Source: Escherichia coli
Lineage (GTDB): Bacteria; Pseudomonadota; Gammaproteobacteria; Enterobacterales; Enterobacteriaceae
Length of the DNA: 64,000 nt
NCBI RefSeq assembly: GCF_003790525.1
Contig: NZ_CP033635.1
Reading direction: 5' to 3' (one strand)
The translations under genes and the position numbers were made by a program. The notes beneath the pieces were generated by a model. That model ran no database searches, had not been told where the DNA came from, and saw nothing but the letters and a program-made list of their open reading frames with translations. Of the stretch, positions 1 through 61,259 are shown in pieces. How positions within the stretch are numbered: the first letter of the stretch is position 1; each line of letters begins with the position of its first letter.

Positions 1-2003
1 GGTAGCTGTATGCGGCAGCTGCGCTACCGAATTTCTGATCCATCACGCCCATCGCCCCGGTACCCATTTCGCCGTCGCCTTTGCTGGCTTCAATGGGGTT
101 CATCAGTACGCTAAGGCTGAAGGTGTCTTTCAGGCTCTGCCAGGTTTCATCTATCGCACTGAACAGCTCTTCACCGAGGTTAAACTCTGCCGGATTGAAC
201 TCTTCGTCCTGAATATTTTCTGCGGTGTAGAGGGTGTTGAGCGTACCCACTACCACTTCTTTCGCCATGGCACCTGTAAACAGGCCAACCGTTGCCTGCC
301 AGTTATCTTCATGCACGCCAATTGGCTTGAAGACCGGGGTGATCACCCGGCTGACGGACGCCAGCGCCGAGTCGTTGATGTTATCGACGATTTTCCCGCT
401 CAGCGAGAAGCTGTTGAAAGCGCTCAGGAAAATGCTGACGATGATAATCACTTTACCAGCACGCAGAACGAAGCCTTTCAGACGCTGCCAGGTCTGGATA
501 ATCAGGCTTTTAACGTGTGGTACATGATAGACCGGCAACTCCATGACAAACGGCGTCGCTTCACCGCGCATGATGGTGTACTTGAGCATCAGGCCAGTCA
601 GCACCGCCATCACGATACCCAGCATATACAGCGAGAAGACCGCCAGCGCACCGTTCTGCCCGAAGAAAGCAGCCGCAAATACGGCGAAGATAGCCAGACG
701 CGCGCCGCAGGACATAAACGGTGCCATCATGATGGTCATCAGACGTTCACGCGGTGCATCAAGCGTACGTGCGCCCATTACCGACGGTACGTTACAACCG
801 AAACCAACGATCAGCGGTACAAAGGATTTCCCCGGCAAGCCCAGCGCCTGCATCAGACGGTCCATCACAAACGCCGCACGCGCCATATATCCGGAGTCCT
901 CGAGGAAGGAGAGGAACAGGTACATCATGCCGATCTGCGGCACCAGTGGCAGCACGGTGTTAATACCGCCGCCCAGGCCCTGGGCGAGGAAGATAGTCAG
1001 CCAGTCCGGGAAGTGGAGCGTGTAGCCAATCCACTGAATACCATGCACAAATAGCGCCACGGAGCCGACGTCAAACAGCGGCTGTAACGCCCCGCCGATG
1101 TTGATAGCCAGCAGGAACATCAGGTACATCACAAAGAGGAAAATCGGCAGACCGAGGAAACGGTTGAGCACGATTTTATCTACCGCAGTGGTGAAACGGC
1201 TGGGTTCTGCCGTCAAGGTGTTGCTTACCACATCACAGATAGCAGCAATGCACTGGTAACGCGCATCGGCAATGTGCAGCGCCGGATCGTCCATCTCATT
1301 ACGCAGACGGGCGAGGGCGGCATCAAGATGCTGCGACGCTTCACCGGCGTAGGCGCGGCTGTAGATATCGCCTTCCAGCATTTGCAGACCCAGCCAGCGA
1401 CGTTGTTTCAGCGGGATGTCGGAAGGCATCACTTTTGCCAGTGAATCTGCTTCGTTGAGTAGCGGCTGTGCGTAATGCACCAGTTCCACATTCTCGTTAG
1501 CTTTATAGCGATCAATCGCCAGCTTGAGCGCTTCAATACCGCGACCACGGGTTGAAACCAGCGGGATCACCGGGCAGCCAAGACGCGCCGACAGAGCATC
1601 AATTTCAATACGAATATTTTGCTTCTCGGCAATGTCGAGCATGTTCAGCGCCACGATGCAGGGAATGCCGAGTTCCAGCAGTTGCAGCGTCAGGTACAGG
1701 TTACGCTCAAGGTTAGACGCATCCACCACGTTAATCAGCAGGTCGGCGTCGCCACTCAGAATATAGTGACAGGCGATTTGCTCATCGAGCGAGGTCTGCG
1801 ATGAGATGGTGGTCAGAGAATAGGTGCCAGGCAGGTCCACCAGGGTGACCTGATGATCGGTGGTGGAGAATTGCCCTTCTTTACGTTCGACGGTAACGCC
1901 AGCCCAGTTACCTACACGCTGACGTGCGCCAGTGAGCTGGTTAAATAAGGTTGTCTTGCCAGAATTTGGATTACCAATTAAGCCAATGGTTAATTTTTTC
2001 ATT
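1..2003 (-). CDS. feoB: Ferrous iron transporter FeoB, partial (3' end of gene lies beyond window start)
   Basis: Reverse complement of 1921..2003 reads MKKLTIGLIGNPNSGKTTLFNQLTGAR (FeoB N-terminal G-domain). Directly downstream of feoA on minus strand. No stop within window, so absent from ORF track. Confidence 0.85.
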
Positions 2004-2018
2004 GTTGTTATCACCGTA

Positions 2019-2246
2019 TTAACAGGAAACCGCTTCCACTTCTAATAAGGCCAGATCTTTTTTGCGTAATACCAGGCTCACACGACGGGTTTCGATATGA
2101 ATGGGGTCGCCGAGTGGAGCGACGCGCACCACATTAAAAGAGGAGCCAGGTAACATGCCAAGAGAAAGCAGTTTTTGGCGATATGCCGGGCTGATTTCAC
2201 GGGAAAAGCCAGTGATTTTCCACGCAGTATCTGGAGTGTATTGCAT
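2019..2246 (-). CDS. feoA: Ferrous iron transport protein A
   Basis: 75 aa ORF; translation recognised as FeoA; followed by feoB. Confidence 0.93.
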
Positions 2247-2361
2247 AGGTGCCTACTTGTTTCTCATTAACTGGATAACTACCTCATGGGGCGTTTGACA
2301 GCGACATGAGACCAGATGATTTGCCAACGAAGGAGAGATTAAATAATCAACAGTACAATGA

Positions 2362-2381
2362 TAATGAGAATGGTTTCTATC
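2362..2381 (-). promoter_or_regulatory. Fur-box-like element in feoA upstream region (tandem GATAAT-like hexamers: ATGATAATGAGAAT)
   Basis: By-eye match to Fur consensus GATAATGATAATCATTATC; feoAB is known to be Fur-repressed. Exact site unverified. Confidence 0.3.
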
Positions 2382-2435
2382 AGCAATACTTAAAATGTGT
2401 GTGAATGTTGGTTTGAATAATAATCTGACTCAATG

Positions 2436-2449
2436 TTGATATGGCTCAA
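2436..2449 (-). promoter_or_regulatory. FNR-like half-palindrome TTGATATGGCTCAA upstream of feoA
   Basis: Matches TTGAT-N4-NTCAA with 9 of 10 consensus positions; feoAB is known to be FNR-activated. Confidence 0.3.
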
Positions 2450-2574
2450 GGTTATATCGCAGCGAAAATATAATTCGCATGACGAATTATTAGGGCTGGT
2501 TAATGTTTAATTAAGGTTTCAGTTGTTAATGAAATGATAAATATTAACGGGATATATTATGAGTTTGCTTGTGG

Positions 2575-2605
2575 AATAAAAAGGCCGGAGATATTCTCCG
2601 GCACT
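2575..2605 (-). terminator. Probable intrinsic terminator downstream of tex (hairpin GCCGGAGAATATCTCCGGC with flanking T-runs on both strands)
   Basis: Palindrome at about 2584..2602; T-rich on minus strand after the stem. Confidence 0.45.
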
Positions 2606-2683
2606 TTTATGTCAGGCAAGGCGTTCGTTGCCAGATGTGGCGTGAACGCCTAATCGCGCAGGTTTAGGGGCCAGTCCGGGCGT

Positions 2684-5005
2684 TTAACGTTTTTTGCCCA
2701 TTGCCGCCGCCAGCGCATCCATCATCGCGCTATTACCGGCAGGCTGCGCTTCACGCCCACGCGGTTTGGCTGCCGGGCGGTTGTTCTGCGGACGTTCATT
2801 ACCGCCGCCGCGACGAGCGTTGGTTTCGCCAGGCTGCTCGTCCAGACGCATAGTCAGGGCGATACGTTTGCGCTGAAGATCCACTTCCAGCACTTTCACC
2901 TTCACAATATCGCCCGCTTTCACCACGGTATGCGGATCTTCCACAAACTTGTTCGACAATGAAGAGATGTGAACCAGGCCGTCCTGATGAACGCCAATAT
3001 CGACAAACGCGCCAAAGTTGGTGACGTTGGTCACCGCACCTTCGAGGATCATACCCGGTTGCAGGTCGTTCATCGTTTCGACGCCATCGGCAAACTGAGC
3101 GGTTTTAAATTCCGGACGCGGATCGCGACCCGGTTTTTCCAGCTCTTTGATGATGTCAGTTACCGTCGGTACACCGAATTTTTCATCAGTAAAGTCAGAC
3201 GCTTTCAGGTTACGCAACTCGCTGCTGTTACCCATCAGATCTTTCAGTGCCTGCTGTGTTGCTGCCAGAATGCGTTCCACCACCGGATAGGCTTCCGGGT
3301 GGACGGTAGACGCGTCCAGCGGGTTATCACCATGGTTAATGCGCAAGAAGCCCGCGCACTGCTCGAAGGCTTTCGGCCCCAGACGGCTCACTTTCAGCAG
3401 TTGCTGACGGTTCTGGAACTGACCGTTCTCATCGCGCCAGGCAACGATGTTTTGCGCCATCATGCGCGTCAGGCCCGCCACGCGAGTTAACAGCGGAACA
3501 GAAGCGGTGTTGAGATCGACGCCAACGGCGTTTACGCAGTCTTCTACTATTGCGTCCAGTTTGCGGGCCAGTTGCGTCTGGCTGACGTCATGCTGATACT
3601 GACCTACGCCGATAGATTTCGGATCGATTTTCACCAGCTCCGCCAGCGGATCCTGCAAACGGCGGGCTATAGACACCGCGCCACGCAGCGAAACGTCGAG
3701 ATCCGGGAACTCCTGTGCTGCCAGCTCGGAAGCCGAGTAAACCGACGCGCCAGCTTCGCTGACGATCACTTTCTGCGCGGTCACTTTCGGGAACTGCTTC
3801 TGCACGTCGAGATAGAAACGCTCGGTTTCGCGGGAAGCTGTACCGTTGCCGATCGCCACCAGTTCAACGTTATGCTTTTCACACAGGGCAGCAACGGTCA
3901 TCGCTGCTTTTGCGGCTTGTCCGGTATGTGGATAAATGGTATCGGTCGCCACCAGTTTGCCAGTTGCATCGACCACCGCTACTTTTACCCCGGTACGCAG
4001 ACCCGGATCGAGGCCCATCGTTGCACGCAGTCCGGCTGGGGCCGCCATCAGCAGATCGTGCAGGTTACGGGCAAAGACGTTGATTGCTTCATCTTCCGCG
4101 CGTTCGCGCACGGTGCCCATCAGTTCGGTTTCCAGATGCATCAGCACCTTGATGCGCCACGTCCAGCTCACCACGCCTTTGCGCCAGCTATCCGCCGGGG
4201 CATTGTTCAGGCGCAGGCCAAGGTGATCCATGATGATTTGCTCGCAATAGCTCTCTTTCGGCGGCTCTTCGAACTGCGGATCGGCATTCAGCGAAAGCTG
4301 AAGTATGCCTTCGTTACGCCCACGGAACATCGCCAGCGCGCGGTGAGAAGGCACCGTGGATAGCGGTTCGTGATGATCGAAATAGTCGCGGAATTTCGCC
4401 CCTTCCTCTTCTTTACCGCTCACCACCGTCGAAACCAAATGCGCGTTCTTCCACAGATAATCACGCACTTTTGCCAGCAGCGCGGCATCTTCGGCAAACC
4501 GTTCCATCAGGATATAGCGCGCGCCGTCCAGCGCGGCTTTGGTATCTGCCACGCCTTTATCTGCATCAACATATTGTGCAGCCGCGACTTCTGGCGTGTG
4601 TGACGGATCGCTCCACAGCAGGTCAGCCAACGGCTCAAGCCCTGCTTCAATGGCGATTTGCCCGCGGGTGCGGCGTTTAGGTTTGTAGGGTAGGTAGAGG
4701 TCTTCGAGTTCGGTTTTGCTTAAGGTGGCGTTGATGGCCTTCGCCAGATCATCGGTGAGTTTGCCTTGCTCGGAAATGGATTTGAGGATCGCCTGACGCC
4801 TCTCTTCCAGCTCGCGCAGATAGCTCAGACGCGTTTCCAGATTACGCAGCTGCGTGTCATCCAGACCGCCGGTGATTTCCTTACGATAACGTGCGATAAA
4901 CGGCACGGTATTCCCTTCGTCAAGCAGGCGAACGGCAGCGTCAACCTGTTCCGGGCGCGCCTGAATTTCACCCGCAATAATGCGGCAGAACGAATCATTC
5001 ATCAT
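2684..5005 (-). CDS. tex: Transcription accessory protein Tex (YhgF), S1 domain RNA-binding
   Basis: 773 aa ORF; translation recognised ([20 protein letters not shown]...). Confidence 0.95.
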
Positions 5006-57258: not shown

Positions 57259-59063
57259 TGGAAGGTTCCGATTTTTTACTCGCAGGAGTGTTGTTTCTCT
57301 TCGCGGCGGTGGCTGCGGTGCCGCTGGCATCGCGGCTGGGTATTGGCGCTGTGTTGGGATATTTGCTGGCAGGGATTGCAATTGGCCCGTGGGGGCTGGG
57401 TTTTATTAGCGACGTCGATGAGATCCTCCACTTTTCGGAACTCGGCGTGGTGTTCCTGATGTTTATCATCGGCCTGGAGTTGAATCCCTCCAAGCTTTGG
57501 CAATTGCGGCGTTCGATTTTTGGCGTAGGCGCGGCACAGGTGCTGTTAAGCGCGGCGTTGCTGGCGGGATTATTGATGCTGACCCATTTCTCATGGCAGG
57601 CGGCGGTGGTCGGTGGCATTGGCCTTGCGATGTCTTCAACTGCAATGGCGTTGCAATTGATGCGTGATAAAAGGATGAATCGCAGCGAATCCGGCCAGTT
57701 AGGTTTCTCGGTACTGCTGTTTCAGGATCTGGCGGTGATCCCGGCACTGGCGTTAGTGCCGTTGTTGGCGGGTTCGGCAGACGAACATTTCGACTGGATG
57801 AAGATCGGCATGAAGGTGCTGGCGTTTGTCGGCATGCTGATTGGCGGGCGCTATTTACTGCGTCCGGTATTCCGTTTTATTGCAGCTTCTGGTGTGCGGG
57901 AAGTGTTCACCGCCGCGACGCTGCTGCTGGTGTTGGGTTCCGCATTGTTTATGGATGCGCTGGGGTTGTCGATGGCGCTCGGTACGTTTATTGCGGGTGT
58001 GCTACTGGCGGAAAGTGAATATCGCCATGAACTGGAAACGGCTATCGATCCCTTCAAAGGCTTGCTGCTCGGTTTGTTCTTTATCTCTGTCGGCATGTCA
58101 CTCAACCTCGGGGTGCTTTATACCCATCTGTTGTGGGTAGTGATAAGTGTGGTTGTGCTGGTGGCGGTGAAAATTCTCGTGCTGTATCTGCTGGCGCGAT
58201 TGTATGGCGTGCGTAGCTCAGAGCGGATGCAGTTTGCTGGCGTGTTGAGTCAGGGCGGTGAGTTTGCCTTTGTCCTCTTTTCTACCGCTTCTTCACAACG
58301 CTTATTCCAGGGCGACCAGATGGCGCTGTTGCTGGTGACGGTGACGCTTTCCATGATGACCACGCCGCTGCTGATGAAGCTGGTAGATAAATGGCTATCC
58401 CGCCAGTTTAACGGACCGGAAGAAGAAGACGAAAAACCATGGGTCAACGATGATAAACCCCAGGTCATTGTCGTGGGCTTTGGGCGTTTTGGTCAGGTGA
58501 TTGGTCGTTTGCTGATGGCAAATAAAATGCGCATTACTGTACTGGAGCGGGATATCAGTGCCGTTAACCTGATGCGCAAATATGGCTACAAAGTTTATTA
58601 CGGCGACGCCACGCAGGTAGATCTTTTACGTTCTGCGGGTGCAGAGGCCGCTGAGTCTATCGTCATTACCTGTAACGAGCCGGAAGACACCATGAAACTG
58701 GTGGAAATATGCCAGCAGCACTTTCCGCATTTGCATATTCTTGCGCGAGCGCGCGGACGTGTGGAAGCGCATGAGTTATTACAGGCAGGGGTGACGCAGT
58801 TTTCCCGTGAAACATTCTCCAGTGCGTTAGAGCTGGGGCGCAAGACGCTGGTCACGCTTGGCATGCATCCGCATCAGGCACAGCGGGCGCAACTGCATTT
58901 TCGCCGCCTGGATATGCGGATGCTGCGAGAGCTCATCCCAATGCATGCCGATACCGTACAAATTTCTCGCGCCAGGGAAGCCCGACGCGAACTGGAAGAG
59001 ATTTTCCAGCGTGAAATGCAACAAGAACGACGCCAGCTGGACGGCTGGGATGAATTTGAGTAG
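57258..59063 (+). CDS. kefB: Glutathione-regulated potassium-efflux system protein KefB
   Basis: 601 aa; membrane domain plus KTN/RCK domain ([11 protein letters not shown]). Confidence 0.96.
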
Positions 59064-59072
59064 AGGGTAAAG

Positions 59073-59273
59073 ATGGCAATCCGAAAACGTTTTATTGCGG
59101 GGGCAAAATGCCCGGCCTGTCAGGCGCAGGATTCAATGGCGATGTGGCGCGAAAATAATATTGATATTGTTGAATGTGTTAAGTGCGGACATCAGATGCG
59201 AGAAGCAGACAAAGAAGCCCGCGATCACGTTCGCAAAGATGAGCAAGTGATCGGGATTTTTCATCCGGACTAG
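59073..59273 (+). CDS. yheV: Small zinc-ribbon protein YheV
   Basis: 66 aa; CPAC...CVKCGH cysteine pairs. Confidence 0.85.
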   Translation: MAIRKRFIAGAKCPACQAQDSMAMWRENNIDIVECVKCGHQMREADKEARDHVRKDEQVIGIFHPD

Positions 59274-59367
59274 CGATATGCGCCGAGTTTTTTTAAGCTA
59301 GTGAGTACACGGCTGCAGAATTCCGCTACAATCTGCGCCACTATTCTTCCCATGCTCAGGAGATATC

Positions 59368-59958
59368 ATGAAAGTAGCAAAAGACCTGGTGGTCAGCCTG
59401 GCCTATCAGGTACGTACAGAAGACGGTGTGTTGGTTGATGAGTCTCCGGTGAGTGCGCCGCTGGACTACCTGCATGGTCACGGTTCCCTGATCTCTGGCC
59501 TGGAAACGGCGCTGGAAGGTCACGAAGTTGGCGACAAATTTGATGTCGCTGTTGGCGCGAACGACGCTTACGGTCAGTACGACGAAAACCTGGTGCAACG
59601 CGTTCCTAAAGACGTATTTATGGGCGTTGATGAACTGCAGGTAGGTATGCGTTTCCTGGCTGAAACCGACCAGGGTCCGGTACCGGTTGAAATCACTGCG
59701 GTTGAAGACGATCACGTAGTGGTTGATGGTAACCACATGCTGGCTGGTCAGAACCTGAAATTCAACGTTGAAGTTGTGGCGATTCGCGAAGCGACCGAAG
59801 AAGAACTGGCTCATGGTCACGTTCACGGCGCGCACGATCATCACCACGATCACGACCACGACGGTTGCTGCGGCGGTCATGGCCACGATCACGGTCATGA
59901 ACACGGTGGCGAAGGCTGCTGCGGCGGTAAAGGTAACGGCGGTTGCGGTTGCCACTAA
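59368..59958 (+). CDS. slyD: FKBP-type peptidyl-prolyl isomerase SlyD with His/Cys-rich metal-binding tail
   Basis: 196 aa; C-terminus HGHVHGAHDHHHDHDHDGCCGGHGHDHGHEHGGEGCCGGKGNGGCGCH. Confidence 0.97.
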   Translation: MKVAKDLVVSLAYQVRTEDGVLVDESPVSAPLDYLHGHGSLISGLETALEGHEVGDKFDVAVGANDAYGQYDENLVQRVPKDVFMGVDELQVGMRFLAETDQGPVPVEITAVEDDHVVVDGNHMLAGQNLKFNVEVVAIREATEEELAHGHVHGAHDHHHDHDHDGCCGGHGHDHGHEHGGEGCCGGKGNGGCGCH

Positions 59959-59972
59959 TACCGAAAAAGTGA

Positions 59973-60003
59973 CAAAAAAGCGGGGGAATCCCCGCTTTTT
60001 TTA
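59973..60003. terminator. Bidirectional intrinsic terminator between convergent slyD and slyX (AAAAAAGCGGGGGAATCCCCGCTTTTTTT)
   Basis: GC stem flanked by A-run and T-run. Confidence 0.75.
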
Positions 60004-60007
60004 CGCC

Positions 60008-60226
60008 TCAATAATGTGGCGGTGGCGTTTCTTCAGCCTGCGACGCGATGTTCGACGGCTGGCTGGCTTTTAGCTTCTCGGTCAGCAGACGCAGATGATC
60101 GCGCAGTTTCGCCATCTCCATTTCATGAGCGGTCACCGTGACGTTCAGTTCTTCAATGGTGATTTCCTGAAAAGCCAGTCGGCTCTCCAGCTCTGCCAGG
60201 CGTGCTTCCAATGATAAATCCTGCAT
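60008..60226 (-). CDS. slyX: Protein SlyX
   Basis: 72 aa; translation recognised. Confidence 0.93.
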
Positions 60227-60446
60227 GATTCACCTCTTTTGTCGAATGGTTGCCGCGGATTCTACTTAACTTTGCCGCCCGAGACAGCACTCATTTCGCG
60301 GTCATCGAAACTAATTTAAACAAAAAGAGTCTGAAAATAGATGATAATAGGGCGTGTCTGTATGTAGATTTGTTCGACAACGCTTTATAGTACCCTTCTG
60401 ATAATAGTTAACCCTGGGGTGAGATGCCCCGATCCTGGAGATATGG

Positions 60447-61259
60447 ATGAAATCACTGTTTAAAGTAACGCTGCTGGCGACCACAATGGCCGTTGCCCTG
60501 CATGCACCAATCACTTTTGCTGCTGAAGCTGCAAAACCTGCTACAACTGCTGACAGCAAAGCAGCGTTCAAAAATGACGATCAGAAATCAGCTTATGCAC
60601 TGGGTGCTTCGCTGGGTCGTTACATGGAAAACTCTCTTAAAGAACAAGAAAAACTGGGCATCAAACTGGATAAAGATCAGCTGATCGCTGGTGTTCAGGA
60701 TGCATTTGCTGATAAGAGCAAACTTTCCGACCAAGAGATCGAACAGACTCTGCAAGCATTCGAAGCTCGCGTGAAGTCTTCTGCTCAGGCGAAGATGGAA
60801 AAAGACGCGGCAGATAACGAAGCGAAAGGTAAAGAGTACCGCGAGAAATTTGCCAAAGAGAAAGGTGTGAAAACCTCTTCAACTGGTCTGGTTTATCAGG
60901 TAGTAGAAGCCGGTAAAGGCGAAGCACCGAAAGACAGCGATACTGTTGTCGTGAACTACAAGGGTACGCTGATCGACGGAAAAGAGTTCGACAACTCTTA
61001 CACCCGTGGTGAACCGCTCTCTTTCCGTCTGGACGGTGTTATTCCGGGTTGGACAGAAGGTCTGAAGAACATCAAGAAAGGCGGTAAGATCAAACTGGTT
61101 ATTCCACCAGAACTGGCTTACGGCAAAGCGGGTGTTCCGGGGATCCCACCGAATTCTACCCTGGTGTTTGACGTAGAGCTGCTGGATGTGAAACCAGCGC
61201 CGAAGGCTGATGCAAAGCCGGAAGCTGATGCGAAAGCCGCAGATTCTGCTAAAAAATAA
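60447..61259 (+). CDS. fkpA: Periplasmic FKBP-type peptidyl-prolyl isomerase FkpA
   Basis: 270 aa with signal peptide; translation recognised. Confidence 0.96.
   Translation: MKSLFKVTLLATTMAVALHAPITFAAEAAKPATTADSKAAFKNDDQKSAYALGASLGRYMENSLKEQEKLGIKLDKDQLIAGVQDAFADKSKLSDQEIEQTLQAFEARVKSSAQAKMEKDAADNEAKGKEYREKFAKEKGVKTSSTGLVYQVVEAGKGEAPKDSDTVVVNYKGTLIDGKEFDNSYTRGEPLSFRLDGVIPGWTEGLKNIKKGGKIKLVIPPELAYGKAGVPGIPPNSTLVFDVELLDVKPAPKADAKPEADAKAADSAKK

Follow-up and report, generated by a model that had tools for sequence, protein, structure and literature searches.

The long reading frame antisense to Escherichia coli slyD: most probably a shadow of slyD codon choice

The slyD locus and its product

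The window considered here is a single stretch of Escherichia coli DNA, 64,000 nt in length, whose region at 59,000-60,300 has the E. coli gene arrangement kefB-yheV-slyD / slyX-fkpA. The slyD coding sequence, identified from the list of open reading frames (ORFs) together with domain and family matches, occupies 59368..59958 on the plus strand (196 codons plus TAA) and encodes SlyD, an FKBP-type peptidyl-prolyl isomerase (PPIase) and metallochaperone. A Shine–Dalgarno (SD) sequence, AGGAG, can be read at 59358..59362 on the same strand, 5 nt before the slyD ATG. At their 3' ends, slyD (+) and slyX (-) converge on a common bidirectional intrinsic terminator at 59974..60001, which was recognised in a terminator scan by its 12-bp stem with 6 GC pairs. 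Its calculated folding energy is -21 kcal/mol on the plus strand (z = -4.9) and -25.1 kcal/mol on the minus strand (z = -5.5).

The protein is recognised over its entire length. The FKBP-type PPIase domain matches Pfam PF00254 (FKBP_C; E = 1.2e-8, 35.6 bits, cutoff 21.1), and the NCBIfam equivalog NF008008 covers residues 1-196 of 196 with 426.8 bits (cutoff 174). Chain A of PDB entry 2KFW, which represents E. coli SlyD, aligns from residue 1 to 196 with residues 1-196 of the window protein (438.8 bits, E = 3.5e-131). A single RefSeq accession, WP_000861334.1, is used for the SlyD of both MG1655 and strain 2016C-3878, the locus of the latter being 100% identical to the window. NF008008, 2KFW_A and WP_000861334.1 together establish full-length equivalence to the characterised E. 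coli SlyD, the inserted-in-flap domain included. The window SlyD is identical to K-12 SlyD, and the slyD allele differs from that of K-12 at 8 silent sites.

Composition of the SlyD tail

[quoted passage not shown] The original prediction, which was made from the DNA sequence, described the last 50 or so residues as mostly His, Asp, Gly and Cys, and the counts agree: 16 Gly, 15 His, 6 Cys and 5 Asp account for 42 of the 51 residues (82%), and there are also 3 Glu. It further stated that the tail is known to bind metals, which the literature bears out. [quoted passage not shown] Judged by its residues, the window tail is this known metal-binding domain.

The tail codons had been called repetitive, which holds in one sense. 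Their repertoire is limited, being dominated by CAC (11 times), GGT (9), GGC (7), TGC (6), CAT (4), GAT (3) and GAC (2). Tandem repetition in the strict sense is slight. Tandem Repeats Finder reports one weak repeat at 59833..59861 (+), with a 12-bp unit, CACGATCACCAC, in 2.4 copies (score 44), which encodes the run HDHHHDHDHD; with so few copies and so low a score, a true tandem-repeat tract was rejected, and the program found no extended array of identical units in the tail. Pattern positions and alignment add an 11-bp direct repeat, CCACGATCACG, whose first copy lies at 59844..59854 (+) and whose second copy lies 39 bp further on, at 59883..59893 (+). The hexamer GGTTGC occurs twice at 59941..59952 (+), where it encodes Gly-Cys-Gly-Cys.

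Length variation of the tail

The tail was also predicted to vary in length between strains. For E. coli this is overstated. The slyD region was found in 5,425 of 5,426 complete E. coli genomes, and the alleles compared in detail were the window and seven others chosen across an identity range of 98.1-98.8% (731-nt query); all eight of these full-length alleles encode the same 196-aa SlyD. Two rare shorter forms depart from this nearly fixed length. The 183-aa allele (WP_023063096.1) occurs in three of the 5,426 complete genomes (NZ_LR536431.1, NZ_CP038290.1 and NZ_CM149872.1) and on 174 contigs of a 15-billion-protein collection. Aligned with the window and MG1655, the short allele shows a 39-bp in-frame deletion between the CCACGATCACG repeats at 59844 and 59883, with the first copy as the left boundary; one Cys-Cys pair and several His are lost. 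The 194-aa allele has lost one GGTTGC copy, ends in ...GNGGCH, and is found in the same collection on 34 contigs, where the 196-aa form is present on 1,000 or more. Frequent length polymorphism between E. coli strains, of the kind expected from a contingency-type repeat tract, was thus not observed, with 3 of 5,426 genomes carrying the 183-aa form. Between species the claim of variable length is correct: among 80 Enterobacterales species SlyD measures 171-219 aa, with residues 1-145 constant in length.

Such in-frame deletions are occasionally mediated by the short direct repeats of the tail. The three 183-aa alleles differ from each other at 2-3 silent sites, and the nearest full-length haplotype is a different one for each. 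One carrier is an O157:H7 strain, and the other O157:H7 genomes among the matches listed align only as far as the deletion junction, as expected for the full-length form. Because each of the three alleles is closest to a different haplotype and the other O157:H7 genomes resemble the full-length form, the comparison suggests that the 39-bp deletion is recurrent.

An open frame antisense to slyD

On the minus strand, the ORF finder lists a GTG-initiated ORF of 199 codons at 59356..59955, as originally described, which spans the entire slyD gene and 12 nt of its leader. The frame is open from a stop codon at 60001..60003 to position 59356. A phase check, (59955 - 59368 + 1) mod 3 = 0, places it in codon alignment with slyD, each antisense codon being the reverse complement of a slyD codon. 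The conceptual product is rich in Val, Thr and Ala, again as predicted, with 35 Val, 22 Phe, 21 Thr and 20 Ala among its 199 residues; a segment of it reads FANRHNFNVEFQVLTSQHVVTINHYVIVFNR.

In this codon-aligned frame, frame -1, stop codons arise only opposite the sense codons TTA, CTA and TCA (bioRxiv 10.1101/724807), a rule that also follows from the genetic code. None of the three occurs in slyD (0/0/0). Its 14 Leu codons are 13 CTG and one TTG, and its five Ser codons are TCT, TCT, TCC, AGC and AGT. The antisense frame is free of stops because slyD is free of TTA, CTA and TCA. The remaining two antisense frames of slyD stay open for just 45 and 70 codons.

According to the original prediction, it is the codons of the tail that yield this ORF. 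This part of the prediction is for the most part wrong. Only 51 of the 199 antisense codons lie opposite the tail; the other 148 lie opposite residues 1-145, which form the FKBP and IF domains, and the slyD leader, and openness is set by the Leu and Ser codons. The contribution of codon choice was estimated with two codon-usage nulls derived from the same locus, one from 25 translation-apparatus genes and the other from 29 ordinary genes. The probability that the whole aligned antisense frame of slyD is open is 0.605 at translation-apparatus usage and 0.061 at ordinary-gene usage. For the body of slyD, which holds 13 of the Leu and all 5 of the Ser codons, the corresponding values are 0.62 and 0.07, and for the tail alone the probability is 0.86-0.98 at either usage. 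The tail is open at almost any codon choice because it contains one Leu and no Ser. A fully open codon-aligned antisense frame is also present in 16 of the 55 annotated neighbours, including tuf (395 codons), rplB (274), rpsC (234) and rplE (180). The antisense ORF of slyD is therefore no longer than expected under the high-expression codon null.

This argument depends on slyD being codon-biased and well expressed, as ordinary-gene usage would make the openness unusual (P = 0.06). We take slyD to be well expressed, on the basis of its codon choice (CTG for 13 of 14 Leu) and of general knowledge.

The long ORF is best understood as follows. The high-expression codon repertoire of slyD, with 13 of 14 Leu as CTG and no TCA among the Ser codons, leaves no frame -1 stop anywhere in the gene. 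The tail contributes in three smaller ways. Its His, Gly, Cys, Asp, Glu and other residues can never give rise to frame -1 stops; its last codon, CAC (His196), supplies by its complement the GTG "start"; and the complements GTG, ACC, GCC, GCA, ATG, GTC and ATC create a hydrophobic N-terminus rich in Val, Thr and Ala that can resemble a signal peptide. The complements of the tail codons also place many internal GTG and ATG codons, as well as Ile and Met, in the N-terminal part of the antisense product.

Expression signals and coding potential

The original prediction regarded the antisense ORF as a phantom and proposed to check its codon usage and ribosome-binding site. Both checks support that view. 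The first 50 antisense codons include 15 in-frame NTG codons, none of them preceded by an SD-like word. A consensus scan of the minus strand found no promoter-like site between slyX and the ORF, and no sigma-70-like site between the slyX/slyD terminator and the antisense start. By these consensus scans, the ORF has neither a promoter nor a ribosome-binding site of its own. On the minus strand, the terminator hairpin precedes the antisense GTG by 19 nt, and this start codon is in turn paired in a small hairpin. A codon model that contrasts the sense usage of the neighbouring genes with their reverse-complement usage gives slyD +71 bits and the antisense ORF -70 bits. A search of the antisense product against Pfam and NCBIfam returned no meaningful match, the best being TPR_ESP1 at E = 0.82. 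These results point to an ORF that would not be meaningfully translated.

A permissive Rfam scan of 58900..60600 produced a match to the family STnc40 at 59938..60002, with 34.5 bits against a gathering score of 45. It was put down to fortuitous similarity with the terminator hairpin and rejected. The match was not repeated at E <= 0.01 in MG1655, at two Salmonella loci or at one Citrobacter slyD locus, and papers that mention STnc40 gave no connection to slyD.

Variation and constraint

Natural variation was followed both within E. coli and between species. The eight E. coli alleles differ at 23 nucleotides within slyD, 22 of which are third positions and one a silent first position of a Leu codon; SlyD is unchanged in all of them. 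The same variants alter the antisense product in 21 of 23 cases (e.g. Y80D, R150C and M39V). In strain MS 21-1, a change from CTG to CTA at 59658 introduces a premature stop, Q100*, into the antisense frame. At third positions, slyD is about as diverse (22 per 197 codons) as yheV (9 per 67) and slyX (5 per 73). Silent-site diversity like that of the neighbours implies that no hidden second constraint slows the silent sites of slyD.

The interspecies set consisted of slyD loci of about 1.7 kb from 80 Enterobacterales species. In 22 of them a stop interrupts the aligned antisense frame, which is open in the other 58; the frame is not kept intact among close relatives, either between species or, given Q100* in MS 21-1, within E. 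coli. The breaks lie opposite sense codons 22, 26, 29, 40, 43, 45, 90 and others, within a range of 22-147 and mostly 22-112, and affect Atlantibacter, Shimwellia, Pantoea, Pectobacterium, Edwardsiella, Buttiauxella, Xenorhabdus, Budvicia and others. Across the 80 species, one and the same stretch of 435 nt has a median identity to the window of 97.2% when translated as SlyD and of 74.5% when translated in the antisense frame. Taken at the level of these sequences, the antisense product is not under protein-level purifying selection.

The codons that could close the frame show no sign of being avoided for its sake. Pooled over the 80 slyD genes, Leu is encoded by CTG 945 times, TTG 131, TTA 18, CTT 17, CTC 5 and CTA 2, a pattern that reflects the general preference for CTG, and the stop-generating Ser codon TCA (19) is more frequent than TCG (6). 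Selection holding the antisense frame open, a reading that the 58 open species might invite, was rejected, since codons that generate stops are not used less often than equivalent minor ones and the synonymous diversity of slyD is like that of its neighbours.

On the other side of the argument, 58 of 80 is somewhat more than the value of 0.6 that high-expression codon usage in E. coli predicts, a comparison in which the species are phylogenetically non-independent and a single expectation serves for all genomes.

The antisense frame in annotations and databases

PGAP does not annotate the antisense ORF: in all 12 of the 12 E. coli records examined, slyD alone is called. The exact antisense product, in either the window or the MG1655 allele, is absent from the 15-billion-protein collection. 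It had been predicted that a gene caller could mistake the ORF for a gene, and this has happened elsewhere. A homology search recovered 75 clusters of antisense-slyD "proteins", which are variants with other starts or from other alleles. They have 1-56 members each and are mostly single-member, compared with 2,589 members in the SlyD cluster, whose main sequence alone is present on at least 1,000 contigs. The clearest case is SARI_04171 of Salmonella arizonae (CP000880.1), a "hypothetical protein" of 217 aa that overlaps the 198-aa slyD wholly on the opposite strand. Other entries include ESA_04392 of Cronobacter sakazakii, several Klebsiella "conserved exported hypothetical proteins", and JGI entries mislabelled as FliL or DUF2156. 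In one E. coli assembly with a split slyD, a 112-aa antisense piece has been called beside the remaining 98-aa slyD fragment. The pipelines behind these entries are older or other than PGAP, or else slyD is frameshifted in the assembly concerned.

The relevance of the ORF is one of annotation hygiene only, as its length and its hydrophobic pseudo-N-terminus are sufficient for it to have been deposited as "hypothetical" or "exported" in some genomes and metagenomes, where it is better read as the codon-aligned shadow of a codon-biased gene. A simple rule can be drawn from it: the openness of frame -1 is set only by the choice of sense Leu and Ser codons, and not by unusual tracts of amino acids. 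No new biology is implied for SlyD.

Weighing the explanations

The observations fit best with an antisense ORF that is almost certainly a non-coding by-product, or "shadow", of slyD codon choice. The idea that the repetitive His, Asp, Gly and Cys codons of the tail generate the ORF draws on real features: the tail codons, read as reverse complements, supply the GTG start and the opening 51 codons of the antisense frame, the tail amino acids are unable to give frame -1 stops, and the Val/Thr/Ala-rich N-terminus of the product derives from the tail. It nevertheless leaves the 148 codons opposite residues 1-145 and the leader unaccounted for, since the ORF does not stop near 59803 but runs on past it, and it is the body whose openness is decisive, its probability moving between 0.07 and 0.62 with codon usage while that of the tail stays at 0.86-0.98. 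Moreover, tuf, rplB, rpsC, rplE and others have no such tail and yet a fully open frame, species with a long SlyD tail still show a broken one, with the stops opposite sense codons 22-147 (mostly 22-112), and the 183-aa deletion allele leaves the antisense frame fully open. As a sufficient explanation of the 199-codon ORF, the tail mechanism is already refuted, and that the tail codons generate the ORF is very unlikely.

Even less probable, to the point of being nearly negligible, is a genuine antisense overlapping gene embedded in slyD that encodes a small hydrophobic or exported protein and owes its expression to slyX read-through or to a promoter that went unrecognised. The length of the frame, its openness in 58 of 80 species and the database homologues, some of them labelled "conserved exported hypothetical protein", could be taken in its favour, and antisense overlapping genes (OLGs) have been reported in E. 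coli O157:H7 (PMC9927249 and PMC5810103). These points are outweighed by the premature stops in MS 21-1 and in 22 of 80 species of several genera, by the 21 of 23 intraspecific variants that are non-synonymous for the antisense ORF (none of 23 for SlyD), by the identity of 74.5% for the antisense translation as against 97.2% for SlyD, and by stop-generating codons that show no specific depletion. The frame has no SD or promoter-like site and a strong terminator directly upstream, its codon-model score is negative, it matches no family, and its database entries form scattered small clusters, mostly single-member, the largest with 56. Our literature search found no report joining slyD and antisense with an overlapping gene or with ribosome profiling, and slyD (b3349) goes unmentioned in the text and 18 supplementary files of a preprint surveying E. 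coli antisense OLGs, in which genes may appear under other identifiers. A more speculative reading, with as little credence as the tail mechanism, is low-level, non-adaptive (pervasive) translation of the antisense frame in strains where slyX transcription passes through the shared terminator, which would yield a hydrophobic, fast-changing "proto-protein". A second and milder idea is that the rare 183-aa and 194-aa tail deletions may tune the nickel capacity of SlyD in particular lineages. A by-product of slyD codon choice remains the preferred reading.

Comparison with known systems

At the protein level, the gene on the plus strand offers nothing unfamiliar. The window protein is the same as E. 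coli SlyD (UniProt SLYD_ECOLI, PDB 2KFW), an FKBP-type PPIase with an IF chaperone domain and a C-terminal metal-binding tail, and no difference between the two was found. The composition of the window tail, with its 15 His, 6 Cys, 5 Asp and 3 Glu, agrees with the known nickel-binding tail (PMC7055735).

The antisense OLGs of E. coli O157:H7, such as laoB (PMC5810103) and a set of three (PMC9927249), are likewise long ORFs embedded antisense in an annotated gene. They are reported with transcription, ribosome-profiling signals, promoters or ribosome-binding sites, and phenotypes. The slyD antisense ORF is unlike them in having no ribosome-binding or promoter-like site, in lying behind a terminator, in the existence of natural stop alleles, and in an unconstrained product. 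As far as conservation, constraint and signals can be read from the DNA, it lacks the features of a genuine OLG.

Codon bias as a cause of long antisense ORFs has been described before (Merino 1994; Silke 1997; both as cited in PMC3454372). PMC3454372 also records that some authors hold codon usage to be insufficient to account for the number of long alternative-frame ORFs in bacterial genomes. The slyD ORF resembles the shadow ORFs of antisense frame -1 (Merino 1994; Silke 1997; bioRxiv 10.1101/724807) in its codon alignment with the sense gene and in the absence of TTA, CTA and TCA, and further in a product free of purifying selection, in its company of tuf and ribosomal-protein neighbours, and in its occasional mis-annotation as a hypothetical protein. 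The features of such ORFs that were looked for, namely codon alignment, openness by codon bias and the lack of purifying selection, were all found. There is no essential difference; slyD is special only in the GTG start and the hydrophobic pseudo-N-terminus that its tail supplies. This pseudo-N-terminus gives the artefact a slightly more gene-like look, which explains why some Klebsiella annotations label it "exported". The slyD shadow ORF is an ordinary member of a class that is already known.

Variation at the 3' end of slyD

In one slyD allele, 39 bp have been lost in frame between a pair of 11-bp direct repeats (CCACGATCACG) at 59844..59893 (+) in the window. Its product is a 183-aa SlyD lacking the residues equivalent to DHDHDGCCGGHGH. 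The carriers of this allele are three unrelated-looking complete E. coli genomes, one of them an O157:H7 strain, and the silent-site backgrounds of their slyD alleles (L002, L092 and L093) differ slightly. On these sequences, the deletion is possibly recurrent.

Across the slyD region, identity to the window allele is at least 99% in 464 E. coli genomes and 95–99% in 4,961. One of the 5,425 matches in this collection lies on a plasmid-typed record. In strain 95-3192 (locus L005, 1..84), the kefB gene beside slyD is annotated as a frameshifted pseudogene.

The bidirectional terminator shared by slyD and slyX (59974..60001) also varies. A run of five G (GCGGGGGAATCCCCGC; 59980..59986) is present in its loop and stem in the window and in a minority of E. 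coli genomes, whereas MG1655 and most E. coli genomes have four, so that their matches span 730 record bases for a query of 731 nt. The final 21 nt of slyD together with the terminator (59938..60002, +) resemble the Salmonella small RNA STnc40 in Rfam, but the score of 34.5 bits (E = 7.9e-4) is below the gathering score of 45 for this family. The match was absent at E ≤ 0.01 from MG1655, two Salmonella loci and one Citrobacter slyD locus, and it is therefore probably a chance likeness to the terminator hairpin.

Doubtful records and product names

The record titled Chryseobacterium sp. 18061 holds a slyD of Enterobacteriaceae type, and the segment that matches (residues 1–158) is 94% identical. 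In the record titled Citrobacter freundii M-21, the slyD tail sequence is identical to that of Atlantibacter sp. RC6 (L027), and the two share antisense stops at codons 22 and 40. The slyD loci of the Chryseobacterium and Citrobacter records (L051, L074) look like contamination or mislabelling of the source assemblies.

Some antisense-slyD homologues, among the database proteins P0032, P0038–P0042 and P0055, bear functional-sounding source names: "flagellar basal body-associated protein FliL", "lysylphosphatidylglycerol synthetase-like protein" and "conserved exported hypothetical protein". These names on mis-called products presumably stem from a hydrophobic, low-complexity N-terminus, which is the complement of the His/Gly/Cys codons.

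A second phantom ORF

A second phantom ORF, of 101 aa with a TTG start, lies on the plus strand (59768..60073), shifted by one base relative to slyD. It passes through the tail-coding segment and the terminator into the slyX antisense. Its predicted product is rich in Thr, Ala and Val and includes the stretch TIITTITTTTVAAAVMATITV. Most of its length is due to the restricted codon set of the SlyD tail; in this it differs from the minus-strand ORF (59356..59955), whose length is not mostly tail-derived.
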